DNA of 63,750 nucleotides, filler included, from Craspedostauros australis (GCA_030167865.1; 8 parts of 8 records of this genome joined end to end with filler, not necessarily neighbours in it); one strand, 5' to 3'; counted from the whole stretch's first letter, positions 18,146 through 56,496 are shown. The notes: generated from the sequence alone by a model not told the origin. Program-made: numbers and translations.

Positions 18146-19468
18146 ATGCATCACAGATCAGCAGCCGTCGCCTTTCTGGTTGGTTCATGCCTTAGCAGTG
18201 TCAGCGGCTCCACCAGTGTCAATGTGGACGCTGCCTTTGTTGCCAACCCAGGGTCTTCCACCCGAACCCACTCACGGTCTCAGAATTCGAAATCAACATC
18301 GACGTCGACGGACACCATGTTGAACTTGTCTTCGGACGCATCATCATCGTCGTCGAAGTCAGAGTCGGCACGATTTCAGGGCAGGGGCGCTGCTGATCGT
18401 TCCGCAAGCGCTCCGTCGCTGTTGGAACAGCCAAATGGCCAGATCAATCGCGAACTGGCAGAGCGTCTGTACAAATGGGAACACAACAAGGCATCGTCCG
18501 CTGCTGTCAATTCCGCGTCGGCTTCCGCTGCGTCTTCACCATCCACAGGCAGCAGCGATGGTGGGGCTGCGAACATCGAGGATCTCCTCTTCACTCCCAA
18601 CAGAGCCACACGGGCCAGAACCACCAGAGGCGCTTCAACGACCTTCTCCACACGCCAAGGACTGCGGTTGGTGCAGGAGCTGGTGGCGGAGTGCACGTCC
18701 CCGTCCGCCTCGGAAGAGGACCTCATCCAGGAGGGCATCATCGCCCTCATGCAGGCCAAGGCAGAATACAACGCCGGCTTCGAGGCCTTCGCGCGTCACT
18801 ACATCCGCTCGGCTCTGTCCAAGGGCGGAATGGCCGGGATGTCGCCGCGCACGTCCAACACGCGTTCTTCCGCCTCCATGCTGGATGGTGCAACTTCCTC
18901 GGCTGCGTCCAAGGAACCCATCGTGCGACCGCTCTCGGTAGAGTCCACCATGGTGGAAATGCCGCAGGTCGGTTCCACCTTGGAGGAGACGTCGTCCGCC
19001 GAGAAGTTCTATCGCCCCGTCGCGGATGACGACGACAATACCCGCGGCGGCGCATCCCGAGGCGGCTCCGCATCCAGGAACAAGCAGACGTCGTCCTCCG
19101 CCGCCTCCAACTCGGATTCGCTGGAGTACATCGATCCCATGTTGCAGTACGAGGGCGAGGACACCATGTGGATTCACCAGCAGCGCGTCACGGGCATGCT
19201 GGGGGAGATGATCCCCGATCCTTCCTCGGACGAAAACGACGTCGACGAGCGTCTGCAGGCGCTGCTGTCCTCCACGACGACGTTGACGTCGCAGGAGAAG
19301 GGCATCATCTCCATGGTCTACGGCATCCAGGTCGGTGCGTCCTCGATGGCATTCGCGCCCATGTCCGCAGCGGAGATCGCCACCATGCTCGATATGCCCA
19401 AGCAGCAGGTGCGGACGTTGCAGTCGTCGGCTTTGCATAAGCTGCGGGAGCAGGCAGCGCAAGAGTGA
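18146..19468 (+). CDS. Nucleus-encoded, probably plastid-targeted sigma-70 family factor (degenerate region 2)
   Basis: Signal peptide plus 'DAA|FVANP' (ASAFAP-like) and a Ser/Thr-rich transit peptide. Region 2: GLRLVQELV...EDLIQEGIIALMQA...FEAFARHYIRSAL. Region 4 HTH: LTSQEKGIISMVYGI...SAAEIATMLDMPKQQVRTLQSSALHKLR. Confidence 0.88.
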   Translation: MHHRSAAVAFLVGSCLSSVSGSTSVNVDAAFVANPGSSTRTHSRSQNSKSTSTSTDTMLNLSSDASSSSSKSESARFQGRGAADRSASAPSLLEQPNGQINRELAERLYKWEHNKASSAAVNSASASAASSPSTGSSDGGAANIEDLLFTPNRATRARTTRGASTTFSTRQGLRLVQELVAECTSPSASEEDLIQEGIIALMQAKAEYNAGFEAFARHYIRSALSKGGMAGMSPRTSNTRSSASMLDGATSSAASKEPIVRPLSVESTMVEMPQVGSTLEETSSAEKFYRPVADDDDNTRGGASRGGSASRNKQTSSSAASNSDSLEYIDPMLQYEGEDTMWIHQQRVTGMLGEMIPDPSSDENDVDERLQALLSSTTTLTSQEKGIISMVYGIQVGASSMAFAPMSAAEIATMLDMPKQQVRTLQSSALHKLREQAAQE

Positions 19469-20732: not shown

Positions 20733-22274
20733 ATGCACACTTTACGAGACTACGGATCATCTCCATGCGATGTGGGCGTCGACGTTGGCGTTCAGGCCGA
20801 GGACCAGCTGGGCTGCAATCCTGCGGACGCCGTCCCTCCGCACCGATGGGCGGCAATGAATCCGCGGCGCGAACGCATCGGATTCTTCCGCGGTGATGCC
20901 CAAAGGGCGTTGGATGCCAGGATGGCTGGCAGCGCCAGTTCGCAGGGGTTCCACAAGGATGCTGCGGGATGGATCGACGGTGACGAGGATTTCACGGCAA
21001 TGGGAGAAGCAGCTCTGGCGGGACCGTCAGGCATGCCATCGTCCGCACTTGCGGACATCGCATCCGCTGCTGGGATCGATGGTTATGCGCACGACAATGC
21101 GCAGATGCCACGCCAAGCTGCTGGATCCTCGTCAACGACGGGTCCCACGACTGTGTCAGAGATGATAGACCAGGCTCCCGGCATCGCGGCAATGTTGGCG
21201 CAGAATGCGCTCGTTGGCACACCAGCCACGCCACAAGGCGCTAGTTCCGATCCTACCGAGGCGCAGTCCTTCCAGATGGCCGCAGCGCTGAGTCTGCTCC
21301 TCGATCCCGCAGTATCGTCGACTCCACAAGACCTGCGCGCCCGTCGATGTGCAGAACTTGCAATGGAAGGCCTCGTCAAGTCGCAAAACGAACGAGCCCT
21401 CGCTCTCGTCAGAGCCGAGGGCGCCACCTTCCCCAACATCAAAGCGCCCCGTACCACCAACGGCGGAAGCGCCATGGCATCAGACAATCAATTCGCGACG
21501 ACCACAGGGGAGGCGCAACAGCAGGAAGGCAAGCAGGGACGAAGGAAGCAACACAGCCGGCAGCAGAAAGACCAACGGTCCCAACATTCATTGTCGTCGT
21601 CAGCATCTGATTCATCGAAGAATGCAACCGCAGGATCGTCCCCCGTGTCAGCACCCATTCTACCGATCGTACCAGGCAAGCTCGGTGCACACGACTTCTC
21701 CAAACGCGTCGAACTCCCTGCCGCCTTCTCGCCAAAGCCCACCACGGTACTCATCGGCCGCGGCAAGCATATCGCCAAAGCCGAAGGCAACATTAATCTG
21801 GAGCGCATCGTCGATGATCACCTCGGCCTCTACAGCACGTCAGAATCGCGCATCGCCAAATCCGCCATCGTCACGAACATCATCCATCTCGTGCGTCACG
21901 CCAACGACTACGAAGGCTGCTTCGTGCGCCGCATCCCCAAGGGGGATAGCCTCTGCTACTGCGAGGTCGTAGACACTGAGGCACGCGAGAAGATCGGCAG
22001 CATCTTTCGCAACAAGATGAGCGAGAGATACCGGTCCAGCACCAAGTCGAGGGTGGCGCGGCGACGTCTCAATCGCAATATGACGTTAAGCGCCAGGCAG
22101 TATCAGAATGCTCCCGAACCGGAGAGGACTGCGGGCGATGGGTATCCTGACAAGGCGCGTCGGTCGGGTCATGCGGCGGACACGTATGCGTATGCGTATG
22201 CGCATGCGAATGTGAAATCGGATGATAGTGAGGAAGATGCGAAGGAGGTCGGTGGCCGTGCTGGTGGCAACTGA
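20733..22274 (+). CDS. DUF6824-like domain protein (diatom-expanded putative transcription regulator)
   Basis: VLIGRGK....EGNINLERIV....Y.....KSAIVTNIIHLVR.....FVRR.....EVVDTEAREKIGSIFRN...Y.SS.K matches the family pattern. The N-terminus is low-complexity and the true start is uncertain. Confidence 0.85.
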   Translation: MHTLRDYGSSPCDVGVDVGVQAEDQLGCNPADAVPPHRWAAMNPRRERIGFFRGDAQRALDARMAGSASSQGFHKDAAGWIDGDEDFTAMGEAALAGPSGMPSSALADIASAAGIDGYAHDNAQMPRQAAGSSSTTGPTTVSEMIDQAPGIAAMLAQNALVGTPATPQGASSDPTEAQSFQMAAALSLLLDPAVSSTPQDLRARRCAELAMEGLVKSQNERALALVRAEGATFPNIKAPRTTNGGSAMASDNQFATTTGEAQQQEGKQGRRKQHSRQQKDQRSQHSLSSSASDSSKNATAGSSPVSAPILPIVPGKLGAHDFSKRVELPAAFSPKPTTVLIGRGKHIAKAEGNINLERIVDDHLGLYSTSESRIAKSAIVTNIIHLVRHANDYEGCFVRRIPKGDSLCYCEVVDTEAREKIGSIFRNKMSERYRSSTKSRVARRRLNRNMTLSARQYQNAPEPERTAGDGYPDKARRSGHAADTYAYAYAHANVKSDDSEEDAKEVGGRAGGN

Positions 22275-23387: not shown

Positions 23388-24672
23388 ATTGGCATTTGTT
23401 CTCGAGACCGATCAGCAGCTCCTGGTCTTTCTTAATGCCATCCAGTTGCGGATACTTTGGACGTGAGTTCTTGCTGAAATGGACGGGAGAGGAGATGCGA
23501 TGTGTGGCTGCATGCTTGTTGTTGAGTGGATGTTGTTGGGTGATGGAAGATGCCTTCCTTTTTCGCTTCCTGTACAAACTCGTGAGCAGATGAAAATTGA
23601 ATGTGATGGGATGAGTCTCGTCTCGAATCCAAACTCACCACTCATGTCCTGACGCTCTCTGTCTCTCTCCATCTGTCTATCTATCTATCTTCCTCTCATT
23701 CCTTCATCATGGACACTATCATATCCGTACGTACGTATGTACGTGAATACGTCAACAACAGTATGCTGGCCGACGCGTTCTCCGCACTCGCCATCGTCGT
23801 TCACGATCTCATCGAACCATTCCGTGGATGCTATTCTATGTTTTGCAATGTGTCAACCAACACTCAACACTGCGCCTCACACTGGATGCGCGGATTGAGG
23901 ATGATGAGCATGATGTCCGCAAACGATGCAAGACAGCGTTGTCCTCCAATGCCAAAACGAGGACGAGGGTGAGGCTGAGTACGATCGTGGGTAGTGAGAT
24001 GAGGGTGCGTGACCAGCGAGGTTTCATGTACGAGTCTGTGGATGTCATGGGACAAACCACCAATCAATCAGTTCATGAATCAATCAGTGAAGCAGAGTAT
24101 CTTGAGAGTATATATCATATAATACAATGCATACGAAGCAGCTCGATGATCCAACTTAGTATTGGCAGTGCAAAAGACGTTGGCGGATCTATTGAGAGCA
24201 GCGGACGGATGCACGAGACTCTAGAGACTGCGCAATATCCATAAAGAAATTCGTCCACGATAAAAGTCCAAAATTGTCTCAGGAGACCAAGCGGATTCGA
24301 GGGGTGCCAAAATTGGTCTCCTCAGACCAAAATCAAGCAACGCGACGTTTTATCGCGATGGCATTTTCTTCGACCACCTCGACTAAAACTATTTGTTCGC
24401 GCTCACTTTTTCCCCCCCTCACATCGTTTTTTTCGATTTCTCACAATGTCCTGGCATGCCCTCCTGTTTACTATGGCTCAATGCTTCTCCTGGATGCATT
24501 GAGCCACTTGCATCTCATCACAGTTCTTCGTATACATATGTTCGTTGCATGCTTATCCATGTCCTCCACGCTCTTCACAGGACATGATCGTTCCGCAGCG
24601 TTCTTCCTCTTGCATCACAATGATTTGTNNNNNNNNNNNNNNNNNNNNNNNNNNNNNNNNNNNNNNNNNNNN

Positions 24673-24684
24673 TTAATTAATTAA
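24673..24684. other. Artificial contig linker TTAATTAATTAA in N runs (also 38133-38144, 40885-40896, 44273-44284, 53376-53387, 56541-56552, 59707-59718)
   Basis: An identical six-frame-stop 12-mer is centred in N spacers seven times. Confidence 0.99.
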
Positions 24685-24729
24685 NNNNNNNNNNNNNNNN
24701 NNNNNNNNNNNNNNNNNNNNNNNNNNNNA

Positions 24730-27700
24730 GCGTGTGGGGCAAGCCGTCGTCATGTGTGCAAAAGGCATGCTCGAAAGCGGGCCAGATGCTGCTGGTCATG
24801 TGGAGACCGAAGTTCAGTGTTGCGTAGCGCAATGAACAGGTAGAGGACGTGGGGAGTTGTTTCGTGGATAATGCAACGATATCTGCTAAGTTAGAGCTTA
24901 GTAGTATGTCGCTCGGGCCGTCTGGATTGTTGATGTGTGTGTGTGTGTGGTGTCTGGGATGGTCGGTAGTATCGGTGTTTGTTGGTTGGCGTTGAGGTGG
25001 GCACGAGTTGTGGGCAGCACAGAGAGGAGAGAGACAAAGCAAACACAGGGTTAGGCATCATCCTCTTCTCCGCCTCCGCGCTTCGTAATTGCTTCCTGCA
25101 GGATGCGCGTGATAACGTCGGCGGCCTTTTCGCCTTGGTTCACACATTTCGCGACCTGTTTGGCTTTTGCCATCGCCACCTTCTTCTTGAAGAGATACCC
25201 GAACGGGCATCCGCTATCGCGGATCTCGTGAACCTTGCCGGACCCTCCGCAGTGCTTGCACTTCTTCCGCCCTGTTTCGGCAGGAGTGGTGTCAGTGTCA
25301 TCCTTCGGTGTCGAAGACGGGCCAGGGGTGCCGATTGTGCGCTGCTGGAATTTCTCCAGGACCTTCAGGTTGCACCAACCGCCTCGTGCTCCTTCGCGTA
25401 CGATGATGTACGTGCGAAAGATCATGAGATTGCGGGAGGACGCGAAGTTGCGTGCGTCAAAGAGAGCCTTGGCGTAGTGCTCGAGGTATACCTCGGCGGA
25501 GTCCTCCCATCCGTTGGCTGTCTTGAAGGCTTCCTCTTGGAGTTTGAGGAGGAGTTCGTGATAGTACGTCAAGAACAGCTTGAGGACGGCGACCCATCCT
25601 CCGCCTTGCTGGTAGAGAGTGATTTGCTCATCAGTGTAGCAGCCGTGGCGGAGAATGTGACCCACATCGTTGAGGTAGCGGGTCATCACGTCGTCGCGGA
25701 TGCTGTTGAAGTCACCCGCGAGTTCGCTGAGGTCTTCGGAGGTCTTGATGCGGCCGAGAGCGTGNNNNGTCTTGGTGCGCCAGTTGGAGTCGGTGGCGAT
25801 GAGACCGGCAGATCGAGCGGTTTGGTTGCGGATGTCTCCGAAGGCGGAGGCGAGTTCTTCGATGGATGTACGTTCATCGGTGACCTTACCTGGTTGGCTG
25901 GTGACGTCGATGGCGGCTTTGGCGAGTTCGGTCTGGATCTCTTGGCTGGCGTGTGGCGGGGCGAGGTGTTTGAGCATGCGTCGTTCGTTGTCGATGGCTT
26001 CGCCGAAGATCTGTTTCTTGTCGCCCTTGGACGAGTCTTCGCCCAGGAACTGTTCGATACCCATGCTGGTGGAGCCAGATGGAGCCCGCTCTGGGAGAGG
26101 GGCCGTCGCTGTTTGGGACTCGGCGGAGGTGTTTCCTGGGTACGTCGCTCCTGCCGGGTGTGGGCGGTCGTGTGACATCGGCTGGCTGTAGATGGGTGCG
26201 GTTGTCGTTGAGGCACGGAGGTAGGCATCGGCTTCGGCGAAGGAAGCACACCGAACAACTCGGGCGGTGCTTCCGGTGCCTGCTTGAGCGATGGCCTCAG
26301 CCGCCGAGGTGTATACCCCGGGGCGTCGTCCGTCGATCGCCACATACCATTCGGTGTCCGTGGTTGGGGCAGGCGCGGGAGCCAGACTCGAGGAGGGATG
26401 GCCATGTTGGAGCAGTTGCGTGATTTGCGCCTGCTGATTCGCTAGTGCCCGCAACATTGCTTGCGTGGTCTCCTCTGACTTGCGTTGGTGGAGCTCCATC
26501 GCTTCACGGTTGAGGGATGTTTGATGGCGCACCACATGCATGAGTTCGTCGGCTGCGGTGGTGGCCAGAGCAGGAGGAGAGTAGTGTGTTCCGTGCTGGG
26601 AAGAGAGGACTGGACGGGGGACGACCGGGACGGGGCGCATCAGTGGGACCGGGGGTGTGCGGCCAGATGCTCCTGGTTGGGTGGTCGGTGGCGGACCAGC
26701 GGGGTTGGTCTTGATGCGGACGGGTGGCGTCGGCTGTACGTCGATGCCGGGTCGTCCTGCCGGCTTGGTGTCGAGGTCGAATCCGACCACTCCGACGCTT
26801 TTGGCGTCGCTGTCGTTGCGTGCAGCGGCATCCGTGATGTCCATCTTGCCGACAGCTTCGAGATCGCGGAGCGCGGCGGCCCGAGTAGAGTCATAGGCGG
26901 CGCGACTCTGGTGGCTGCTCTCGATGAGATCGCGTCGGGGTGCTCCGCCAAGCGTGGTTGTGTCGAGGCATTGGTACACTCCCGGGAGTCCGCGGCGGTC
27001 AGAGTCGCGACGAAGGGTATGGTGGTTGCTGCGGCGGCACTCGCTGGCCAAGTTAGCGCAGAGTAGAGTGTGGCCATCCTCCGACTTGGAGGAGAGGCGA
27101 ACCAGGCAGATGCGGTCGTCAGCCACGACGTGTCCGATGGCCATCCCGATCCCGACTTGGTCAAGGAGAGTGTCGCTGCCCATGTCACCAGAGCGGGCGG
27201 ATCCGCTGGCCACCGAGGACACAGTCTCGACTGCGATCCCGGGCACGGACGCCGCCGGAGGCATACTGGCGAAAGCGGAGGCCTCAGACGCAAGAAGCGA
27301 GGAGAGATTGGGTGGGTCGGTCATGGTGAGGACTCAAGAAGACGGTGAAAGGCGTGAAGTGGTGTAGAAGGCGTTGTTTTGTTGCTAGGTTACCCCTGAG
27401 CAAGCGTTGCGGGAAGCGTTATCCGAAGCGAGGAGTGTGACAATTCTGTCGTCTTTTCCAAATTGTGCGCATTTCGGGTGTTGCTTGTTGCATCGCTTCT
27501 CTGCTTGTTGTTTCTCTTCTCTCTTTCTCCTTTCTCTTGCAGGTTCCTCAATCTCCTCGTGTTCGACCTCCTTCGTTTCTCATTTGCTCGAAGCGGGTCT
27601 TGGTCCGGCTTCACTATCCGATTGCATCTTCTCTGATGGGTTTGCAATTGGTGTCATCGATAGCGCATTCCGTGTTTTTGAGTTTTTGTTTGTGTGTCGA

Positions 27701-29016
27701 TTTTGTCGCCGCGGGCGATCATTTTGTGAGCTCCGCATTGCCATCAAATGGCCGTTGTCGCACATGGTTCGAATTGTCCTTACTTAGGATAATGGTCCAT
27801 GTGTGGCCGTTATAACCGTTAAGTTTGGGTCTCCATTGCGGGGTGATGCACATGGCTTGCATTCCCGTTGTGTGTCCCGTCTTCTTCCTGCGGATGATGC
27901 TCTGGAGTCGTATGGGTCGGCTGTATCAACCAGTCAATTATGTCTAGAAGTGACCCGCCTATGAAAGTACCCATGTGTACCAAATGAGAAGCACAAAGAC
28001 CGAATCATGGACGCAACGAAAATGCCGCATTTTCGATCTGCGCGAACTTTGTCTGTGGCGAAGAGAATGCTTCGCGAAACAGCCACAGCCAACGCGGCGA
28101 TGAACGGCACGCATCTGCTTTTGCCGACGTTGGCAACAAAACGGAAGATCGCGTTGGATACGACTACTTGGGTGGCAAGAGACACCTTCTCCTGACCTCT
28201 CTTGTGTGTTGTCCTGTTGGCAAGTTCCGCTCACGGTAACCTACGATCGTGGAAGATGGTGTTGGTTGATAGTCGTCTGTTTGCTATTTCATTACTTGGC
28301 TACTCCGATCCTCTCGGTGTACGCCCGTTCTCTTGCCCGATGCTCTTGGTGCTTCAATCTGTTTCGTAGATTCGGTCTCCGACTATGAGTCGGTACGTGA
28401 GATGCTCTCTCGTTCCTCTCTGTATTCTCTCTCTCTCTCTCTCTCAACATCGTGTGCTCGCGCTACACGATACTCCGTGTTCGATGTGTACTCCGTATTC
28501 GACACTCCGTTCATTCAGTACTGGCTCCTACTCCATGAGTACTTGCCATTTGAAGTTCACCTTCTGTATCCATGATGCTGATGCCCTTCGGTCATCGGAT
28601 CTTCGCCTCCTGCTCTGACTTGGAGACAGATGTCGACGTGGTGACATGATGACATCCTGTTGACGTCAGTAGGCATCCTTCTGCTCTCCAGATGTCATGT
28701 TCCATTGGTGATGCAGTAGTCTGTCAGATGATATCGTCATCTGAGGTTTAGTTGGGAAGTACCTTGAGATTCTCTTGGTACCATTGATGGATGGACGGAC
28801 GATGTTTCCGATTCTCTCAGAAATCGTCGATTGCAAATTTCCTCCAGAAATTCTGCTCATTTTCGTGTGTTCCATTTCCCCTGTAATTCTGACGAATCAC
28901 AGTATACTATCGACACGAATGTAGTTATACCGTCCAAGTGCGTATGAGAGAATAGCGGGTGAACGATGCACATATACTTGTACATCTCGACATATACTCA
29001 CATGTACATCTCGACA
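24730..29016 (-). mobile_element. Unclassified retroelement-like TE (candidate tyrosine-recombinase/DIRS-order); 5' part only, cut by the contig end
   Basis: Begins on the minus strand at 29016 with TGTCGAGATGTAC, a terminus shared with 38005 and 56416. It has a ~1.7-kb leader, a Gag-like ORF and a second open frame running into the gap. It interrupts the copia integrase exactly at 29016/29017. Confidence 0.7.
25051..27324 (-). CDS. Gag-like ORF1 (757 aa) with an RNase H1 N-terminal/caulimovirus viroplasmin domain and a C-terminal Cys/His knuckle
   Basis: WYVAIDGRRPGVYTSAAEAIAQ...FAEADAYL (26218-26349) fits the hybrid-binding domain pattern. N-terminal C-x-C-x-C-x-H cluster; C-terminal CKHCGGSGKVH...CP. 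Confidence 0.8.
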   Translation of the reverse strand: MTDPPNLSSLLASEASAFASMPPAASVPGIAVETVSSVASGSARSGDMGSDTLLDQVGIGMAIGHVVADDRICLVRLSSKSEDGHTLLCANLASECRRSNHHTLRRDSDRRGLPGVYQCLDTTTLGGAPRRDLIESSHQSRAAYDSTRAAALRDLEAVGKMDITDAAARNDSDAKSVGVVGFDLDTKPAGRPGIDVQPTPPVRIKTNPAGPPPTTQPGASGRTPPVPLMRPVPVVPRPVLSSQHGTHYSPPALATTAADELMHVVRHQTSLNREAMELHQRKSEETTQAMLRALANQQAQITQLLQHGHPSSSLAPAPAPTTDTEWYVAIDGRRPGVYTSAAEAIAQAGTGSTARVVRCASFAEADAYLRASTTTAPIYSQPMSHDRPHPAGATYPGNTSAESQTATAPLPERAPSGSTSMGIEQFLGEDSSKGDKKQIFGEAIDNERRMLKHLAPPHASQEIQTELAKAAIDVTSQPGKVTDERTSIEELASAFGDIRNQTARSAGLIATDSNWRTKXXHALGRIKTSEDLSELAGDFNSIRDDVMTRYLNDVGHILRHGCYTDEQITLYQQGGGWVAVLKLFLTYYHELLLKLQEEAFKTANGWEDSAEVYLEHYAKALFDARNFASSRNLMIFRTYIIVREGARGGWCNLKVLEKFQQRTIGTPGPSSTPKDDTDTTPAETGRKKCKHCGGSGKVHEIRDSGCPFGYLFKKKVAMAKAKQVAKCVNQGEKAADVITRILQEAITKRGGGEEDDA

Positions 29017-31470
29017 TACGTAGATGGACTGCGTACGTTCGGTGAAATAGGCATGGTCCACATCGGAGGACGAACAATCAAGGCGAAGCTGGATAACAGA
29101 TCCAAGCCAGCTATGTTCGTCGGATACGGACAATCGCATGCTAGTGGTGTATACCGAATGATGAATCTAGCTACAACAAGAATCCTGATCACAAGAGACG
29201 TGACATGGATGAACCAGTCATATGGGCAATTCAAGGGTATTACGAATGCCAACAGGTCAGTACTAGTAGACCTGGAAGATGACGACTCTACATCGGGGAT
29301 GCCTTCTCCGAATACTAGAGTAACTTAGGAGCGACGTGAGGACACCATCAAGGGAATGGAGACCGACGACGCAGATCAGAGCAGAGGAGCCGGAATTGAT
29401 ATAGATACAGAAGACGCTGCTCAAGGGCAAGATGACTTGCTCCCCACCCAAGGGGACAATGAATCGTACGATGACAATGACGATGAATCCGGAAGGGACG
29501 ACAAGAAAGGACAATACGAGTCGGCCGAGGACGAGCCAGACGAGGTCCCAGTCGCAACACCTGTTGGGCACATGCCAAGGATGCCGAAGGCTCTCGCAGG
29601 GTTCAATAATTCACCCATTCCTATGGAGGAACGAGACCAAGGATCCAGTGGGGAGTCAGAATCAGAAGAAGGAGAGAATGAGATCACTCCAACTACGACT
29701 ACCACACCATTGGCAACAGGAGGACAGAATTTCCACACGAATTGGTCAACATTCAACAGAGACGTCGCAGGCATGATGATAGACACCACTCATGGTAAGA
29801 TGAGACTCGATGACTTCATCACTGCGAGCCAAGGATTGGATCAACAATCACTCGAAGAGGGGTACGAGCATGCTAATGTCGCAATGATGCTAGACCCTAC
29901 GACATTCGAGGAGTGCTGGGATCATGCAGATCCTGAGAAGAGAAAGAAATGGCGGGAGGCCATCAATAAGGAGTTCGATGATATGACCAGAAGAGGAGTA
30001 TGGGAGAAGATCAAGATGAACCAGATGCCGAAGGATCGGCGGTGCGTGAAGACCAAATGGGTGTTCAAGGAGAAGAGGAACAGTGTGTTTCGTGCCAGAC
30101 TCGTGGCATGCGGATACTCGCAAATCGCAGGAGTCGACTTCTCAGCACACCACGCACCAGTGATACATGACGCAACCTACCGTGTTATGCTCACAATGAA
30201 GATGTTGTTACACCTGGACAGCATCATTATCGACTTTGAGACAGCATTCCTACATGGAGAACTCGAAGAAGAGATCTACATGCGATGCCCGAAGGGCATG
30301 AAGCACGAAGCCGACGAATGCCTGCTACTCAAGAAAACCATCTACGGACTCGTGCAGAGTGCCAGACAATGGAACAAAGAGCTGGTCGACATCCTACTCA
30401 AACTGGGGTTTAGACAGAGCACTGTAGATCCATGCCTCCTGATTCGGGATCAGGAAGGGAGACTGCTGCTGATCGGAACCTACGTTGACGACTGCCTATG
30501 CATCGGAGATGAACAGGAGTTGAAGAGGCTAGTAAGGGATATCAAGGCAGAGCGGTTCGGAGTCAAGGTGGAAGAGGATCTTGAAGACTATCTCAGTTGC
30601 AGGATCATGTTCAACCACGACCACACGAACTGCTGGGTGAACCAACCGCACATCATCAAGAACATCACCGAGACGTTCAAGGACGATGTGATGAAGCTAC
30701 AACGGTACGGTACACTAGGAACACCAGGGCAAGGCATCCAGAGGGAAAGCGACTCGCCCAAGGTGGACAAGGAATGGCACAGCAGATACCAAAGCGGAGT
30801 AGGTATGCTGCTATACTTGGTGAAGCACTCTCAACCCAACATCGCCAACGCAGTACGAGAACTGAACAAGGTGTTGGACAGACCAACAGCTGTAGCATAC
30901 AAGGAAATGCTAAGGGTCATGAAGTTCGTGTCGGACACGAGAGAGTATGGACTGAAGATGAAGCCCAGTCCATTGGAGAACGATGCATGGAAGATTGTCA
31001 TATACACCGACAGCGAGTTCGCTGGCGACAAGGACAATCGCATCAGCGTAGGAGGACACGTCGTCTTACTACAAGGAGTGCCAATCATCTGGAGATCGAA
31101 GGCACAACGCAGCGTGACACTGAGTTCAACGGAAGCAGAGTACGTTGCACTATCGGAGGCCGGAAAGGAGATCCGCTTCCTCACCCAACTGATGAGAGAC
31201 ATCGGGTTGGAGATGCACAGACCAGCAGACGTGATGGTTGACAACGTGGGAGCAATCTTCATCGCTTCCAACCCATCCACATCCGCCAGAACCAGACACA
31301 TCGACATACGACATCACTTCATTCGAGAACTGATTGCGAACAGAGAGGCTAGAGCCTGGTTCGTACGTTCAGAGGACAACATCGCAGACGGATTCACCAA
31401 GAACACGAAGAAGGAGATCTACGACAGACACAAGGGCGATATCATCCAGCCAAGGTCAGAATTGGACTAA
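29017..31470 (+). pseudogene. Copia pol remnant with an in-frame nonsense codon at 29326-29328
   Basis: ORFs 28966..29328 and 29356..31470 share a frame. The TAG aligns with TGG (Trp) in the second copy (GTG ACT TGG at ~38574-38582). Confidence 0.9.
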
Positions 31471-31555
31471 TGGAACAGAAAGAAGGATGGTGGTGATGAA
31501 GGGCAAGGGAGCGTGGAGTCAAGAATGATATATTGTCGATGCGACAATGGAAGGG

Positions 31556-32311
31556 TGTCAGGAATCGGGGGTACGCTTTTACTAAGATACCCATGATTGC
31601 CGCACCTCCCAATAATATCTTCACAACTTGACGAGATCAACTTTGTTGATAACACTCGGACCACCTTGCAGCCTGTCCCCCATCACCCCTCTGTCCATGA
31701 ATGGCATCAACATCAATCATGTCCCGCCATGGAGCCTATCCATGCACCACCGCTGAAATGAGGGCGAACCTATGGTTCGACCACAAGGGATGTAGTCGCA
31801 CATGAACCAAGACTATGGGCGACATCGTCAATATATATTAGACATGTTGATGCGCATCGACGGACAAGGGATCGCTTCTCTGAGAAAGAGAAATGGAGGC
31901 GATGCCCCTATCCGCTCAAGAGCACGAATGACAACGCGACATGGTTTGAACATGACCGGTGAGTATGTGATGATAGCGCAGGAGGAATACTGAGGAACCG
32001 AGGGCCATGTGGGATCGATCAGGCTGAGACCCATGCTGAAGGTACCTGTGCGTCTATGAGAGATGCTGCTCGAATGTAGAAGATGCAAATCACCACGATG
32101 ATGCATGATGAATCTGCAGAAGAGAGCATGAGAGCAAGATGATGAAGCAGATGAAAGCAACCATGAACAAGTGCATGATCATGGTGAACTGCTACGGATT
32201 ACGCTTGTTGTTGAATTGGAATTGAAGAGTCAAGGAGTTTGTTCTCACAGTTCTAAATTGGTACAGATTGATAACAGATTAATCTACTACCTTAACCCCG
32301 GATTTCCAACA
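31556..32311 (+). repeat. Putative 3' LTR (756 bp)
   Basis: Purine tract GGAAGGG directly before TGTCAGGAATCGGGG. The candidate end CCCCGGATTTCCAACA is an imperfect inverted repeat of the start (TG...CA). No second LTR is available to confirm it. Confidence 0.6.
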
Positions 32312-33615
32312 GATGTGTTTTGTGTCATGTGTTTTGTGACGAGCAGAATGTGGAATCAGGTGCCACATGCCAACGTGTAATTAACGCGTACCAAACGACT
32401 GACACCTTCGGAAGCAAGTCCGTGACTGATCACCTCATGATAAATACATGAGAACATGATAGAACCTTCTGCCAACAACAACGGGTTTTGTGCTGTTGGA
32501 CCAACGTGACTGCTATACATACATAGATCACTCCATAAAACTTAAAATAAGGATCTAACAAAAATGTAACGGTTAATTATGTATAATCAGATTGTAGGGA
32601 TTACGTATATGTGCTTGGTTTGGATATCGCAGATGAAAAGTTAGAATGTCCATTTCAAAGTGTTGGTCGACTCACTCGAGGGGCTCCTATGGAAGAAGGC
32701 GAGCTTGCGGAAAGTTAAGACATCGTCACCGCACGTTGTTGTGTCTGGCAGGTGTCTCTGTACCTCGTCACTGGAACCTCTCTGTGCTCACTTTTTGCTT
32801 TGGTTTCTTTGTTGGTCTTTTCGAGGATCGTCGCCACAAATACTACTATCATGCGAGGAGTACCAGTTCTCCACTCTTGTAACAGCCCCCTCTTTGTGGT
32901 CCTTGTGTCGCACCGTGCGTCCAACCAATTTCCGTTGGCTCCCTTTCGCCATCTTCTGACTTGTGGGACGCGAAACCAACTCTTCGCGAGTCGTCGCCGC
33001 AAGGAGGGCGAACTTCCGTTGCCTCGACCCCTGTGTTGCAACCCCACTCGCGCTCACCCAACGCGGTCCGAGAGCGACAGTTGTGTGCTGTCCTGCTGAC
33101 CCTGCATTGACACCAGTGGTACTTGTGGACGAGTAAATGCAGAGCCAATCTCGACACTGGAACTCTTGAATCAATGATGGGAGCAAAAGAGGCACAGGAT
33201 CACATCCCGGTAACGAAAATACTATCACCAGAGCACTTCCAGTTCGCTCATGCCAGAAAGACCGAGTTCACTTGACGAGCTTTCGCTGCATTCCGCTTCA
33301 TGATACAACTGCAACGCGAGAGGCGCTCCGAAAGTTGCCAGCAAGAGATTGTGTTTCCGATCTTTCGCCGTACGATACATGGGGCTCGTCCTCTCCATGC
33401 ACGCATGCACACACAACACAAACCTACGGCCACAGATGCTCTTCTCGCGCTTCTTCGTGGATGAAGTTTGGTCGTCGCAACTCCTCGTCCTCACAAAAAG
33501 CATTCGCTGACAACCAAAACAACGAGCAACATACAACGGACAGCAACCAGCAACCAGCAGCACTCACAAACCAATACTCTATTCTACTCTGACCCAAGCA
33601 TCCGATCTCTTCATC

Positions 33616-34976
33616 ATGGTTTCCTTCGGCAAAGCAACTCTGTTCCTCTCCATCATGAGCTCCGTCATGGGCTTCACCTTGGGCGAAGGTACGCAAAGCA
33701 ATAAGAGATGCTCCAGGCCTGCCGAAGATTGCAGGTGCCCAACAACTGCGTGGATGACCATCCAACTCACATCTCCGTTTGCACCTACATACGTCTACAT
33801 CGTCCATCATCGCTCAATGCATATCCTCCTCCCGCTTCCGCCATCACAATAGAAACTCAAGTGATGATGCAGAAGACCCGCAACCTCAAGGGTGCCGGCG
33901 GCGGCTCCCAATCCAAGAACTCCAAGCAAGTAGGATTCTCGTCAGATGAAGCGGAAGTTGACGCGGAGGCATGGAGGCGCAGCGAAGCTGCTTGGTTCTA
34001 CGGGCATCTTACTCAAATCCAAAACAAGCAGCTCCTCCGGCAGCTTGAGCAGTTTAGTATCATTAATTTGGCGGCAGGAGGCACCATTGCTAACACGCTC
34101 GCAAGTGCCACAGGCTTAGATGCCTGCGTGGCGGGCAATCCAGGGATCGGACGAAACGGACAGTTCACTGAGGTTTGTTGTGACACTCTGAAGAAGCTCA
34201 TCAAGTTTTGGTCGTTGGATCCTGCCATCGACAACACACAACTGGCGAAAATCCAATTGATAGGCATTAAGGGGCAAGTCTTGACAGAAACAGCCTTGCT
34301 GAAGGCAATCTTCGGCCAGTCTCCACTCGTAACCGACGAAGTGATCCAACGTCTGCAAGGGGGGATCCAACAAGGCCTCCCTGGTGGCTTTGACAACCCT
34401 CTGCTCACGACTGGTACGATTGCGACTGGGACACTGACCGACACAGGGACGATTGGCGGCGTGATCAACGATCCGACTGGGCAACGTTTCTTCTTGCCAT
34501 ATGATGCCTCTGCTATCAATATCGGGGATGGATTTACCGACTTCGTGCAAGGCCAAGTTCCTGTGCGACCATTCTTTCTCGAGACGACTGTGATCAACCT
34601 ATTCGCTGGATACTTGAGGAGCGTTGTTGAACGACCTTCCATTGCAGAACTGCTCGGACCAGCCGGGGAAACACCAATCAGTCAAAATCTCCGTCTTACC
34701 GAACGCGAAGTCGTCTTCCTCGTAATGGCGGGGTACTTCATCGCGCACGACAAGGGCACGCTCTTTTTTGATACCTTCTGTGACTTCTTGGAGTATTCAC
34801 GTGCATCGCCAGCGCTCAGCAACTGCGCGATAATCGTCGGCGCAAACCTTGCCGCGATGGACGGTGAGGATGTGAATACGACGAAGCTCATTGAGTACGC
34901 CAAAGCTAACTTCATTGGCATTGCAGGCTCTGATCCATCCATCTGTCCAACTCCACCGGGCTGCTTCGATGATTGA
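33616..34976 (+). CDS. Secreted protein of unknown function, two exons (intron 33689-33852), with an RNL propeptide motif
   Basis: Signal-peptide exon MVSFGKATLFLSIMSSVMG ends at a phase-1 GTACGC donor. A TAG acceptor at 33852 restores the 33708..34976 frame (ETQVMMQKTRNLKG...). Confidence 0.8.
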
Positions 34977-35327
34977 GCTGTCGATCATTGCGCGTCACAT
35001 GGCGATACCAAGGTCATGCTTTCGAATGGCCATGTCGGCAACAAACTTCGCTTGTGGAGTATCCGTAATCTGTTTCCACCGAAATGGACACTGGTAGTTC
35101 TTATCTAGTATTCTATTCTATATCAGGTTGCCTTCGTAGTCTCTCAGTTTCATGGAGCTTGTGTTGCATAACATCATGTAATAGGTGTGATGACTGCTGA
35201 TTGTGGTTTGAATGACATGCCGTGAGCCTGTTGCGTGATCTTCGGACAGATCTGTGGTCAGATCGAGGCCAATCGTCGCTCGCTCTCGTCTCTAACCTGC
35301 TCCCTCTCTAGTGCCTTCAAGCGCCGC

Positions 35328-35361
35328 CTGTAGCCAACGTTTTTGGCTACAGTTGGCTACA
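35328..35361. repeat. 10-bp perfect inverted repeat plus a direct copy (candidate piggyBac subterminal repeats)
   Basis: CTGTAGCCAA (35328-35337) and TTGGCTACAG (35343-35352), then TTGGCTACA again; ~470 bp downstream of the transposase stop. Confidence 0.55.
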
Positions 35362-35826
35362 ATTGGATCACAAAAAACTGCTCTGTAGAATGTAGTACAT
35401 TTTATACGTAAGTCCCGAACAAAAACAGGCCAGAAACAGCATCAACCGCGGTCAAACTCTCCGCACTCAGCTCGTGTGCGTGTTCCTGTGCTCGTACTAC
35501 CATTGTAGCATAGTATATTGTTTATATATACTATCCTGAAGTTTGGTGACTGTCGCTCTCTTTCTCGGCGAGCAATGACACGATACGTCAAGCACCCCCA
35601 TCATTCACGAATGCAATTGGGTATTCGAGACGTGTTTGGGCACCCCAGACACGTTTGGACTCATCAAAAACATCACCTCCACATCCCCTCCTCACAATTT
35701 CGTTCACGATGAATCGCCAACACCTTGGCAACAGATGACAGCACAGTCCAATCAATCAATCAATCAATCATTTGATGCCCTCTTCAGATGCATACGGATC
35801 ATATTGTATAACAGTGTATTTATGGA

Positions 35827-38004
35827 TTAGTTTGCATTTCCCTCGTTGTTTGTGGCGTGTGTGTGGAAGCATGTGCTGGTGTTCCCTTTCTTCAAAACTG
35901 TTGGGCAGCACCATACGAGCGTTTCAGGTGCAGATGATGGGCAATGTTCGCAGATGAAGCCCACAAGTTTCTTGCAGGTGATGCATCTTCCTCTTGCTGA
36001 TCTCTGTCCACGTCTCAAGCGCCCTTTGCTGTCCTTGTAGACATTTGACAGCTGTTTCTGTGCTTTTACAAGGTGATGATCGCCAATTCGGTATGGTGAT
36101 TGCTTCTGTTCCTGTTGTGTTTGGCTGTTGTTGGTACCGCTGTCACTGTTGCTGGTGTTGTTGTTGGTTGCGCTGTTGGTTGGCTCGTTGGATCTCTTCG
36201 TCCCACCGTCCACGTCATCGCTGGCGTGCCCTTGTGCCAGAATAGATGTGGTTTCCAGACACCGTGGCGTGGCATGTTCGTCGTTGAAGATCATGTCCTC
36301 CGCAAGCATGTTGATGAAGGTTCGCAGGCTTAGTTGTTTATGCCTGTGACGAGCCCCAAGATGATACGTATAAGCCTTCATTGCATCCACGACAGTGAGG
36401 GCGAACAAAGTCGTAACCAGGCGGAAATATCCGTCCCTCGTCACCCAGATCCTCTCAAGGCCCAACACATCTTGGCGGACATGGTTGTGGGTGTCCACAG
36501 CGTTGGAAGCGCCGAAATACTTACTTGCCACCTCGGGTCTTGGAACCTCCTTCATTCGATGCCTGCGTTCGTCATCGATCCATTTTGCGATGTAGGGCGT
36601 GGATGGCCCCAAATGACCTGATCCAGAGGAGAACACAAATGGAATCACAGACACGCGCGAGTATTTGTATCCCATGGCATATATCTTGGTTGGGGAGTCA
36701 TTGCCATTGACATCCCCATCATCATGGTTGCGTTGCAATAGTAGCTGTGTTCCAGAGGGCCAATCGCTCATCTTTTCTTGTAGAAACTTGAGGGGGAAGC
36801 CGGCAGACGAAGTCTTGATGATGCCAATGAATCCTGATTTGGTCTTTGTCGCGATTTCCAAGCACGTCTGCACAGAGGCGAACCATGAATCCCCTAAGAA
36901 GATGCTGTTGGGGAGGGCGAAGTCTGATGTGTCGATGTGGATGTTGTTGCGCCCGATGTCATGTGTTGCCAGAGCCATGCGCAGAGAACAGGCAACAGTT
37001 GCCTTTCCGCAATCTCTGACGTGATCAGCCTGGTCCATCTCTCGCTTTCCGCGTTGAATCTCTAAATGAAGCATGATACCGGTTTCACTATCGGCAACGG
37101 TTTTGAACTCCACCCCAAGCGGTGCCGGCTTGCGCGGAATGTGTGTCAGATGGGGAAGGTTTCCGGTGGGCGACAGACGGGGCTTATATGCAGTCATGCT
37201 TTCGTCCATGACTTTGACCTGTCCTGGAATGATGGTGTCGCGCCGACGCTTGTTGAACAGTTCGACCCCAGGTTGGATTTGCCACCACTTATCGTCATGT
37301 TGCCTGGCCGGGTCTGAGAACAAGTATGGGATGAAGTGCTCACGGATGTGTCGGAAGCAATGGAAAGGCATGTGTGTCGTGACATTTCTTACCTTGCAAA
37401 AGCCTTCGTTGATCCTGTCGCCCCAGAGCTTCGTGGTCGAATCCAGCTTCCCCACAAGCATGATTCCAAAGAACACCCACAGTTCGCGCTCAGACACAGG
37501 GATATTGTTTCGCCTGCTTCCGACATCAATTGCGCCTGCGATGATGTGCCTGTTGAGAGCGCCAACTTGCAGTTTCCAATCACCAGGCCATAGATGTTGC
37601 ACCAGTCCCAGGAGGTTGATGCGGTCACGATTGGTGTCGTCTTCCAAGCGTTTCTCGCTGAAGTTGAAACCCGCAACGCCCAGCTTGGTTTGAGGCTCTT
37701 CGTCGCACTGCTTAATTGATTTGTCATCCACCACTGTCCATGACCGTGCATTCCTCAGCTTGCCGACCGTGACTGTTGTACCCATCAATTGATTCTTCTC
37801 CTCCATGTGCGTGTATCCTGGGGACTCTTCTTCACGTCGCATGACGTAGTCGAATTCGTCCCCAGTGAGCAAATCGCCTGTACTCAGGTCGTAGGCTGCA
37901 TGAGGGTTATCTGTTGAGTCATCCTTGTTGTTCATGGGGATTCCTGCCTCGGACTCATCTGCATTTGGGTTGGGGATGTCCATGTCTGCACCATGCCTGG
38001 TCAT
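35827..38004 (-). mobile_element. piggyBac-like transposase (DDE_Tnp_1_7 type) with C-terminal Cys-rich domain; 5' end interrupted by an insertion at 38005
   Basis: Catalytic motifs VMDESM, IPRKP..LG, FLGDSWFAS and NAVDTHNHVR; CRD RGRCITC....CEHC...CC...CFHTH. The first 17 aa of the track ORF come from the inserted terminus. Confidence 0.92.
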
Positions 38005-38088
38005 TGTCGAGATGTACATGTGAGTATATGTCGAGATGTACGAGTATATGTGCATCGTTCACCCGCTATTCTCTCATACACACTTGGA
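38005..38088 (+). mobile_element. Second copy of the TGTCGAGATGTAC terminus, running into the contig end
   Basis: 84 bp that are the reverse complement of 28933-29016, with two mismatches and a different flank. Confidence 0.92.
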
Positions 38089-38188
38089 NNNNNNNNNNNN
38101 NNNNNNNNNNNNNNNNNNNNNNNNNNNNNNNNTTAATTAATTAANNNNNNNNNNNNNNNNNNNNNNNNNNNNNNNNNNNNNNNNNNNN

Positions 38189-40840
38189 TCACACGGCGAC
38201 GCAGCTGGAGAACATCATTGGCACGAAGTCAAGGGAGCCAGCGTGTATACTGTTAAACGGAAAAATCCCGAAATATGCAAATGACCTGCGTGTGTTCGGT
38301 GAGATGGGGATGGTACACATCGGTGGACAGGCTATCAAGGCCAAGCTAGACGACCGTTCCAAACCTGCCATGTTCGTGGGATACGGAGAGTCGCACGCGA
38401 AAGGAGTGTACCGCATGATGAACCTTGCTACCTCGAGAATCCTGATGACTCGAGACGTAACATGGTTGAATAAGTCGTATGGAGAGTTCAAGGGTATCAA
38501 GGATGCCAACGTATCCAGAGTGATGAACGCAGACGACGACTCCTCATCAAGAGACTCGTCTCCAGAGAGAGGAGTGACTTGGCTTCGTCAATCGGACAGT
38601 ATGAGTAATATAGAGACCGATGACGATGAACAGCACAGCAGAACCGGAGAACAAGGAGATTCAGAAGATGCTGCGCTAGAGCAGGACGACCTGCTACCCG
38701 TCCAGGAGGATCAGGAACCAGACGATGACGTCGGCGATGAATCCAAAAGGGACGAGGATGGAAGGAGTGAGGAAAGAACGGTAGAAAAAGCACCGCCCTC
38801 GACTCCAGTCGCAACACCTGTTGCGTACGTACCGAGAATGGTCAGAGATCTCGCAGGGTATAACAACTCGCCCGTTCCTAAGGAGGACAGAGACTACGGA
38901 TCCAGCGAGGCGTCGGAATCTGACGATGAGAAGCAAGGGACTGCCCAAGAGACAGAAGCCGAAACAGCGGCGACAGGGGGGCCGAGCTTCCATACAGACG
39001 GGTCGATGTTCAACAGAGACGTCGCAGGGATGCTGATAGACACCACTCACGGAAAGATGAGATTGGATGATTTCATCGCTGCGAGCCAAGTAACGAATGA
39101 CCGAGTCAGACCCGAGCAAGCAAGCGTAGCTATGATGCTAGACCCTACCACCTTCGAAGAATGCTGGGACCATGCAGATCCCGAAAAGAGAAAGAAGTGG
39201 AGAGAGGCCATCAATAAGGAGTTCAACGATATGACCAGAAGAGAAGTATGGGAGAAGATCAAGAGGAACCGAATGCCGAGAGATCGGCGATGCGTGAAGA
39301 CCAAGTGGGTATTCAAGGAGAAGAGGAANNNNNNNNNNNNNNNNNNNNNNNNNNNNNNNNNNNNNNNNNNNNNNNNNNCGTAGCTATGATGCTAGACCCT
39401 ACCACCTTCGAAGAATGCTGGGACCATGCAGATCCCGAAAAGAGAAAGAAGTGGAGAGAGGCCATCAATAAGGAGTTCAACGATATGACCAGAAGAGAAG
39501 TATGGGAGAAGATCAAGAGGAACCGAATGCCGAGNNNNNNNNNNNNNNNNNNNNNNNNNNNNNNNNNNNNNNNNNNNNNNNNNNNNNNNNNNNNNNNNNN
39601 NNNNNNNNNNNNNNNNNNNNNNNNNNNNNNNNNNNNNNNNNNNNNNNNNNNNNNNNNNNNNNNNNNNNNNNNNGCAACCTACCGCATCATGCTCACTATG
39701 AAGATGCTACTGCACATGGATAGTATGATCATCGACTTCGAGACAGCATTCTTGCATGGAGAACTCGATGAAGAGATCTACATGCAATGCCCAAAGGGCA
39801 TGAGGCATGAAGCCGATGAATGCTTGCTGCTCAAGAAGACCATCTATGGATTAGTGCAGAGCGCCAGACAATGGAACAAAAAGCTGGTCGACATTCTACT
39901 CAAGTTAGGATTTCGGCAGAGCAAAGTGGATCCATGCCTTCTGATTCGGAATCAGGAAGGGAGACTACTGCTGATAGGCACCTACGTCGACGACTGCCTA
40001 TGCATTGGAGAAAAGGAGGAGTTGAAGCAACTGACGATCGACATTAAGGCTGAGCAATTCGGAATCAAGGTGGAGAACGACCTCGAAGACTACCTCAGCT
40101 GCAAAATCATCTTCAACAACGACCAGTCGAACTGCTGGGTGAACCAGCCACACATCATCAAGAACATCATCGATACATTCAAGGATGACGTGTTGACTCT
40201 ACAACGATACGGAACTCCAGGAACACCAGGACAGGGTATACAGAGAAACAGCGACCTACCCAAAGTGGACAGTGACCGACACAGCAGATACCGAAGCGGA
40301 GTAGGTATGCTGCTATACTTGGTGAAGCACTCGCGACCAGACATTGCGAATGCGGTGCGCGAACTTACCAAGGTGCTAGACGGACCATCAGCTGCAGCAT
40401 ACAAGGAGATGCTGCGAGTAATGAAGTTCGTATCGGACACGAGGGACTACGGACTACGGATGCAACCAACCCCGCTGGAGAACGACGCATGGAAGATCGA
40501 GATCTACGCAGACAGCGAGTTTGCGGGAGACAAGGATAACCGGATCAGTGTCGGGGGACATCTCGTCCTACTGCAAGGGGTGCCCATCGTATGGAGATCG
40601 AANNNNNNNNNNNNNGTAACTCTCAGCTCAACAGAGGCGGAATACGTCGCCCTGTCAGAAGCAGGAAAGGAGATTCGCTTCCTCACGCAGCTAATGGAGG
40701 ACATCGGCTTGACGATGACCAAACCAGTGGATGTGTATGTGGACAATGTGGGGGCCATCTTCATTGCCTCCAATCCGTCGACATCAGCGCGAACGAGACA
40801 CATCGATATACGACATCATTTCACTCGGGAGCTGATAGAC
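38189..40840 (+). mobile_element. Second, diverged Ty1/copia copy (IN C-terminus, RT, RNase H), gapped
   Basis: Collinear with 29017-31470 (AMMLDPTTFEECWDHADPEKRKKWREAI, YVDD, ADSEFAGD) with many synonymous differences. Confidence 0.95.
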
Positions 40841-40940
40841 NNNNNNNNNNNNNNNNNNNNNNNNNNNNNNNNNNNNNNNNNNNNTTAATTAATTAANNNN
40901 NNNNNNNNNNNNNNNNNNNNNNNNNNNNNNNNNNNNNNNN

Positions 40941-44030: not shown

Positions 44031-44363
44031 TTTCACGGGACACGCCACTTGGCTCAACTGACTAGATCGACTAATCAAGGTTCTCGCCACATCGGGATCG
44101 ACGAAGCGGGAACAGACCAACAGGCCACGAATGCAAAGGCGGGCCGATGAGAGCAACACATGGCGCTCGCGCGTTCGTTTGGAATGGCCAAGCCATGCAA
44201 ACCACTTCACAACATCAAGTATCAACGTNNNNNNNNNNNNNNNNNNNNNNNNNNNNNNNNNNNNNNNNNNNNTTAATTAATTAANNNNNNNNNNNNNNNN
44301 NNNNNNNNNNNNNNNNNNNNNNNNNNNNATGCCACACAACTTGGCGAGACCCTGCACTGATGC

Positions 44364-56415: not shown

Positions 56416-56496
56416 TGTCGAGATGTACATGTGAGTATATGTCGAGATGTACGTGTATATGTGCATCGTTCACCCGTTATTCTCTCATACGCACTT
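56416..56496 (+). mobile_element. Third copy of the TGTCGAGATGTAC terminus, running into the contig end
   Basis: 81 bp matching 38005-38085 with three mismatches and a third distinct flank (GAGGTAAG|TGTCGA). Confidence 0.92.

Follow-up and report, generated by a model that had tools for sequence, protein, structure and literature searches.

Elements of the DIRS order (DIRS1-like, Ngaro, PAT, and VIPER) carry gag, a tyrosine recombinase (YR), and a reverse transcriptase/RNase H/methyltransferase (RT/RH/MT) gene, according to a published account whose text uses neither the word diatom nor the word stramenopile (PMC3266345). For diatom elements, the portion of Maumus et al. that we drew on describes a separate first open reading frame (ORF1) upstream of the polyprotein in some elements as well as CCHC fingers in Gag (Maumus et al. 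2009, PMC2806351). Here we describe a region in a 63,750-nt stretch of DNA from Craspedostauros australis (GCA_030167865.1), the whole of which is referred to as the window. On the minus strand of positions 24729–29016, a sharp and repeated terminus is followed by a long leader and an ORF1 of 757 amino acids. This region is probably a retroelement with an ORF1 architecture that is unreported; a full-text literature search found no paper tying this ORF1 domain set to a diatom element. We consider it rather probable that 24729–29016 (−) represents the first 4.3 kb of a pol-bearing, multi-copy retroelement that inserted into a copia integrase gene and is cut by a contig end.

The window consists of eight contigs that are joined by N44-TTAATTAATTAA-N44 linkers. 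Because these linkers separate contigs, no feature can be read across them. The element region forms the left end of the contig 24729–38088. Since 24629–24728 is one of the linkers, position 24729 is a contig end, and the "gap" at which the initial annotation let the element stop is not a break within an element. The region comprises the following features.

28933..29016 (−), terminus copy A, 84 nt; starts with the 13-mer TGTCGAGATGTAC at 29016–29004, which is repeated 24 nt further at 28992–28980
27325..28932 (−), remainder of the leader; without a long ORF, GC 42–53%, Rfam-negative
25051..27324 (−), ORF1, 757 amino acids plus stop; a 4-N gap at 25765–25768
26905..27147 (−), β-rich Cys/His domain, ORF1 residues 60–140, with Cys-73, Cys-89, Cys-96, and His-101; predicted local distance difference test (pLDDT) 84–97
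26407..26574 (−), long single helix, coiled-coil-like, ORF1 residues 251–306, from the structure model
26200..26361 (−), putative RNase H1-type hybrid-binding domain (Cauli_VI), ORF1 residues 322–375; diverged in the window copy
25330..26052 (−), all-helical conserved domain, ORF1 residues 425–665, from the structure model
25207..25260 (−), CX2CX6HX6C zinc-knuckle-like motif, ORF1 residues 689–706; nearly invariant in the family
24729..25050 (−), stretch after ORF1, 322 nt; an open frame of 109 codons that includes a (CA)n run

The 84 nt of the terminus at 28933–29016 recur at 38005–38088 with 97.6% identity (E = 1.5e-35) and at 56416–56496 with 96.3% identity (E = 2.7e-32), a repetition that is far above chance. 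The three copies share an identical first base, and their flanks are mutually unrelated. The two further copies and the flanking transposons are located as follows.

38005..38088 (+), terminus copy B; inverted relative to copy A, running to the contig end, with the piggyBac-like ORF as its flank
56416..56496 (+), terminus copy C; running to the contig end, with an unrelated flank
29017..31470 (+), copia element flanking copy A; begins inside the SH3-like C-terminal region of the integrase and runs on to RVT_2
35827–38055 (−), piggyBac-type ORF flanking copy B, 742 amino acids; DDE_Tnp_1_7, E = 3e-14

The copia element next to copy A is severed exactly at the start of the repeat, as a paralogue on the contig 38189–40840, which is 72–80% identical, extends 75 nt of integrase coding sequence further upstream of the equivalent point. 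Copies B and C reach contig ends 84 and 81 nt into the repeat. Within the window, the repetition is therefore visible for 84 nt only and ORF1 is present once; in a six-frame search of the window, the hidden Markov model (HMM) of the family detected no further copy of ORF1. The first 17 codons of the piggyBac-like ORF overlap copy B, so that its listed ATG is probably not the true start. No copy of the terminus lies inside 24729–28932, and no second terminal repeat is seen between ORF1 and the contig end. Taken together, the termini and the interrupted copia element are consistent with mobility of the unit and its insertion into other transposons. The initial annotation had proposed a mobile element with a sharp terminus whose starting sequence recurs 24 nt later. 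The shared start base of three copies in unrelated flanks confirms this terminus, and the mobile-element reading holds insofar as the unit is repeated, has a defined end, and disrupts another transposon.

The leader measures 1,692 nt up to the ATG of ORF1 at 27324. Its longest stop-free run in sense direction is 98 codons, in agreement with the ∼1.7 kb of non-coding leader described initially, and no Rfam family was found on the contig 24729–38088 at E ≤ 1. The second open frame that had been noted after ORF1 does exist, with 109 stop-free codons up to the contig end, but its coding nature found no support. It contains a (CA)n run and showed no family match even at E = 10, and on these sequence features it is not regarded as coding. 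The start of a long interspersed nuclear element (LINE) endonuclease in this frame was considered and rejected, as no family matched at E = 10.

Homologues align over the 4-N gap at 25765–25768 without an insertion or deletion, so that the ORF1 frame is most likely intact, as originally annotated. Its GC content (58–64%) is near that of neighbouring host genes. The whole protein gave no Pfam match at E ≤ 0.01. At the N terminus, the residues Cys-73, Cys-89, Cys-96, and His-101/His-102 are present and kept across the family alignment; the structure model continues with a Pro-rich disordered stretch between the Cys/His domain and the long helix, and the list of fold matches for the N-terminal model is dominated by coiled coils. 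The C-terminal knuckle is likewise kept across the family, so that both Cys/His motifs assigned to ORF1 in the initial annotation stand. The spacing of the knuckle (Cys-689-X2-Cys-692-X6-His-699-X6-Cys-706) differs from the CX2CX4HX4C of zf-CCHC, and the best Pfam match is zf-CCHC_6 with E = 0.41.

The RNase H1 N-terminal-like domain that had been recognized in ORF1 is sub-threshold in the window protein itself: Cauli_VI (PF01693) matches the window fragment with 16.5 bits (E = 0.011) over model positions 2–44 of 44, below the Pfam gathering score of 21 bits. A profile of 40 family members matched RNase H1 chains from the Protein Data Bank (PDB) at 3.2e-13 (6vrd), 1.6e-10 (3bsu), and 8.8e-10 (1qhk). 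Residues 322–375 were modelled with a pLDDT of 88–97, and the top five rows of a Foldseek search with this domain are all chains of 3bsu (target-normalised template modelling (TM) score 0.82–0.85, root mean square deviation (rmsd) 1.3–1.5 Å, E = 0.017–0.19). The model superposes on the hybrid-binding domain of human RNase H1 (3bsu) with an rmsd of 1.3 Å over 46 columns and a target-normalised TM score of 0.84. Family profile and predicted fold thus support the assignment of an RNase H1-type hybrid-binding domain to ORF1. The window copy reads Ala and Val-Arg opposite the Trp and Lys-Lys of human RNase H1, which the family consensus keeps. These residues presumably contact the hybrid, and with their replacement the predicted hybrid binding of the window copy may be weaker than that of the family consensus.

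The C-terminal part of ORF1 (residues 420–757), which comprises the helical domain and the knuckle, was modelled with a mean pLDDT of 88.9. Foldseek returned nothing for this model from PDB and BFVD at E ≤ 1e-3, neither a capsid nor a recombinase, and a representative-wide structural aligner gave a best Z score of 5.9 for the C-terminal domain, with all matches being generic helical bundles. Being confidently modelled and without a structural match, the helical domain is a candidate new fold. Structure prediction, which the initial annotation had suggested as a check of ORF1, therefore recovered the hybrid-binding fold and left the C-terminal domain without a match. An Atlas search with residues 526–757 gave low scores and provides a lead only, a cluster at 0.80 in which 32% of the members carry zf-CCHC and Bacillariophyta are commonest. 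Comparison of ORF1 with the Gag-PR-IN ORF of the window copia revealed no profile similarity (hhalign probability 0.2). The label "Gag-like" is thus not borne out by any capsid match in structure, and without a fold match or profile similarity the analogy to Gag is one of position, the long helix, and two nucleic acid-binding modules.

To place ORF1 among other proteins, it was compared in an exhaustive HMMER search with 1.84 billion representatives. This search yielded 274 relatives from environmental data at E ≤ 1e-3, of which 109 also reach E ≤ 1e-10 and 5 reach E ≤ 1e-30. They share about 22–33% identity with ORF1, and many of them are 700–800 amino acids long with the same order of domains, namely an N-terminal C..C..C..H cluster, a Cauli_VI-like domain, and a C-terminal domain of ∼320 amino acids with a C-X2-C...H...C motif. 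Cauli_VI was found in 27 of the 86 homologues scanned. All 30 clusters that were looked up derive from JGI/IMG, ENA, or Logan and none from NCBI or UniRef; the names given in these 30 clusters are "hypothetical protein" or, twice, "Caulimovirus viroplasmin." In 13 of the 30, the longest contig measures 7.6 to 9.6 kb, the size expected of ORF1 together with a pol of the kind described below and one further gene.

Word-indexed searches with the whole ORF1, with alignment A2, and with residues 420–757 returned no homologues. With alignment A3, a metagenome scan gave a single locus (L001) and a scan of prokaryotic genome contigs gave no family loci; no locus came from viral contigs scanned with A3, A7, or A8. 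On L001, a family copy that is truncated and carries an in-frame stop lies next to a DUF6729-like ORF. This neighbouring Cys-rich ORF of 843 amino acids (L001 200–2731 (−)) reaches 0.96 to DUF6729 and about 0.8 to Mutator/KDZ-like clusters in language-model features, and it has no relatives in the window. Judged from these sequences, ORF1 is a member of a large multi-copy family with decayed copies that occurs in marine microbial eukaryotes and is so far uncharacterized.

The link to reverse transcription comes from relatives of ORF1 in a contaminated bacterial bin. When prokaryotic genome contigs were scanned with A7, an alignment of one subgroup of the family, two small eukaryote-like contigs, L002 and L003, were retrieved from one bacterial bin (G001), in which the family resides on six small contigs that form at least three groups ∼30% apart in DNA. 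L002 and L003 are 96.6% identical and differ by 24 synonymous and 10 non-synonymous changes, corresponding to a ratio of non-synonymous to synonymous substitution rates (dN/dS) of 0.12; L002 has a TAG where L003 has AAG. On L002, the ORF1 homologue (110–1639) is followed after 370 nt by a second ORF on the same strand (ORF2, 2010–2858), which is open at the contig end.

A chain of paralogues leads from this ORF2 into a pol gene. ORF2 of L002 and the ORF of L005 share 59% identity, L005 overlaps with L006 (82%), L006 with L009 (99%), and L009 with L010 (82%). In L006, the N-terminal region and the start of the RT lie in a single open frame. In L007, L009, and L010, an FVDD box is followed by motifs resembling RNase H (by eye), and in L010 the stop codon of ORF2 lies some 100 nt short of the contig end. 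By hmmscan, RVT_1 matches the pol of the relatives with E = 5.3e-4 and 9.6e-4. The 379-amino acid tail of pol (L008) has no Pfam match at E ≤ 0.1, and no integrase was seen through the end of ORF2 in L010. Past the RNase H motifs, the sequence of L008 and L010 resembles by eye what we take to be the conserved "..PP....L.K........L..P.W....W" region of DIRS/Ngaro pols.

The N-terminal region of ORF2 in these relatives comprises ∼400 amino acids (L002 2010–2858; L005 43–1110; L006 1–700) and is conserved, without a match in Pfam, NCBIfam, or the PDB sequences. A C5 DNA methyltransferase, which this region had suggested by eye, was rejected, as PF00145 gave nothing at E ≤ 1 and Pfam and NCBIfam were blank.

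No tyrosine recombinase of the ORF1 family was found in G001; among the small contigs, PF00589 matches only L019 (E = 0.045–0.076), which belongs to a different element. On L019 (G001 contig C60, 25–1734 (−)), an RNase H-like end is followed on the same strand by a tyrosine recombinase-like gene split over two frames, an order that is Ngaro-like. Another contig, L026 (G001 contig C39), contains a frame of 793 amino acids (135–2513 (−)) with RVT_1 above threshold, which is LINE-like and unrelated to the pol of the ORF1 family. The presence of this LINE-like frame shows that the bacterial bin holds several eukaryote-like retroelement contigs.

With the one distant relative as a guide, the element in the window would continue past the contig end with a second ORF a few hundred bases beyond ORF1. 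This ORF would encode a ∼400-amino acid N-terminal region, an RT, and an RNase H-like part, and no DDE integrase. A full-length transcript would be driven by the terminal region. The ORF1 protein may multimerise via its long helix and use the hybrid-binding domain and the knuckle to bind the RNA of the element or its RNA:DNA intermediates, in a role resembling that of Gag or LINE ORF1p, whereupon the RNA would be copied by the pol product. For the integration step, a tyrosine recombinase is the leading guess.

Several observations weigh against this reading of the locus as a pol-bearing retroelement. Window searches returned no RT, RNase H, or recombinase of the element and only the RVT_2 of copia; the initial annotation had likewise seen no RT, integrase, or recombinase. 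In addition, tblastn with the G001 pol pieces found nothing in the window at E ≤ 0.01. The proposal of a retroelement is hence partly supported, via the relatives, in which ORF2 of L002 leads to RT-like paralogues, and not within the window itself. In the relatives, RVT_1 matches all four of the contigs that cover the region (E = 4.8e-5, 1.2e-3, 2.1e-3, and 0.075), each below the gathering score; PF17917 gave nothing on their pol, nor did phmmer against PDB sequences, and the RNase H-like part consists of motifs that we took to be such by eye. The junction of ORF1 and ORF2 is seen on one low-coverage contig of another organism. ORF1 proteins of the L002 type are about 20–22% identical to the window protein, and Cauli_VI was detected in 0 of 6 members of A7 and not in L002. 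Finally, the terminus is joined to ORF1 in copy A only, none of the 86 homologues scanned carries a fused enzymatic Pfam domain, and many homologue contigs measure just 2.7–4.5 kb.

The lack of fused enzymatic domains would also suit ORF1 being an ordinary host gene from a family specific to the lineage, with the 84-nt terminus as an unrelated repeat (a solo terminal repeat or a small element) 1.7 kb upstream. In the window, just these 84 nt are shown to be repeated and ORF1 occurs once, its GC content is close to that of the host genes, and a dN/dS of 0.12 is also compatible with such a gene. We nevertheless consider a host gene unlikely. ORF1 sits in transposon-rich DNA between a transposon junction and a contig end, its family is present in multiple copies in two other sources, some of them truncated or interrupted by a stop, and on L002 an RT-like ORF follows the ORF1 homologue. 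Moreover, an untranslated leader of 1.7 kb would hardly be expected for a gene in a compact protist genome.

The short homologue contigs, which have the size of a leader plus ORF1, could point to a unit of ∼4.4–5 kb that contains ORF1 only and relies on a pol-bearing relative for its mobilisation in trans, so that 24729 would lie near the true 3′ end. The 322 nt past ORF1, in which nothing coding was detected, and the absence of G001-type pol from the window would agree with such a unit. However, short contigs are expected as fragments in metagenome and transcript data, and the last 322 nt hold no repeat of the 5′ terminus. As the spacer of L002 (370 nt) exceeds the 322 nt available in the window, the lack of an ORF2 start there is uninformative, and an ORF1-only unit appears improbable to us. 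If the 84 nt belonged to a terminal inverted repeat and ORF1 were an accessory nucleic acid-binding protein, a DNA transposon or some other non-retro element would account for the inverted orientation of copies A and B and for the 843-amino acid Cys-rich ORF that adjoins the decayed family member on L001 (DUF6729 0.96; Mutator/KDZ-like about 0.8). Yet the bodies of A and B point apart, with a copia fragment and the piggyBac-like gene between them, and do not delimit one element; the 843-amino acid ORF has no relative in the window, a transposase is linked to the family in 0 of the 86 homologues scanned, and the context of L002 favours reverse transcription. We regard a non-retro element as unlikely.

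If the locus is indeed the 5′ part of a pol-bearing retroelement, its ORF1 family would mark a group of retroelements that is missed by standard domain searches. A particle protein with an RNase H1 hybrid-binding domain would suggest direct recognition of the RNA:DNA intermediate, and the conserved helical domain may represent a new fold among the structural proteins of retroelements. The identity of the integration enzyme would tell whether recombinase-type retrotransposons are common in diatom-like plankton. More speculatively, marine microbial eukaryotes could harbour a widespread and undescribed lineage of integrase-less retroelements that includes this family. Its ORF1 would join the hybrid-binding domain to a helical domain of new fold and a non-canonical knuckle, and its pol would comprise a ∼400-amino acid N-terminal domain, RT, and RNase H. 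Such a lineage, which we put forward as a tentative possibility, might be a new superfamily of the recombinase type or a pararetrovirus-like element that shares a domain with caulimovirus P6.

The remainder of the window contains host-like genes and further copia elements.

24629–24728, 38089–38188, 40841–40940, 44229–44328, 53332–53431, 56497–56596, and 59663–59762, N44-TTAATTAATTAA-N44 linkers
18146–19468, 20733–22274, and 10237–12183 (+), host-like genes of the first contig

Of these host-like genes (GC 53–60%), 18146–19468 codes for a sigma-70-like factor that has regions 2 and 4, 20733–22274 for a DUF6824 protein, and 10237–12183 for an ankyrin-repeat protein. Copia-like elements with gag_pre-integrs and RVT_2 are also found at 44329–53331 (−) and 38189–40840 (+). 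A perfect direct repeat of 81 nt (52731–52811 = 53251–53331) abuts the contig end with its second unit. No tRNA genes were found in the window, and a motif of the initiator-tRNA type gave one off-target match versus 2.9 expected by chance. Other ORFs on the flanking and neighbouring contigs gave no informative Pfam match.

When compared with the long terminal repeat (LTR) elements of diatoms (CoDi copia-like and GyDi gypsy-like), the locus shares an end that begins with TG, as LTRs do, and the separate ORF1 that some of them possess, and copia elements are abundant in the window. In contrast to these elements, no second LTR, primer-binding site, or polypurine tract was identified on the contig, which ends 322 nt past ORF1. 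The knuckle is CX2CX6HX6C instead of CX2CX4HX4C, and the pol of the relatives, albeit distant ones, has no visible integrase.

With RNase H1 and caulimovirus P6 (PF01693, Cauli_VI), ORF1 appears to share the same small β-β-α-β-α domain. Unlike in RNase H1, this hybrid-binding domain is not followed by an RNase H catalytic domain, and ORF1 has nothing beyond the hybrid-binding domain in common with P6.

The long helix, a nucleic acid-binding domain, the C-terminal zinc knuckle, and the long 5′ leader ahead of the gene are reminiscent of LINE ORF1p, and we also count full-length copies with a common 5′ end as a likeness. The sole match to an L1 ORF1p coiled coil (6fia; Z score 5.9, rmsd 36.8) stands among hundreds of generic helix matches. 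In contrast to LINEs, no endonuclease or LINE-type RT was seen, and the window holds no ORF2. The RT motifs of the relatives ("LPMG..NSP" and FVDD) are, as we take it, of the LTR/DIRS type.

In contrast to DIRS elements, no tyrosine recombinase was found for the ORF1 family, only in the other element on L019, and the pol of the relatives bears an unassigned N-terminal region of ∼400 amino acids. One end of the element lies on the contig, where neither inverted terminal repeats nor internal complementary regions nor split direct repeats are visible. With neither a tyrosine recombinase nor a pair of terminal repeats found for the family, the initial designation "DIRS/Ngaro-like" remains a guess. 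In organization, however, the DIRS order is the closest match among these systems, with a gag-like first ORF and, in the relatives, a pol that combines RT and an RNase H-like part without a DDE integrase.

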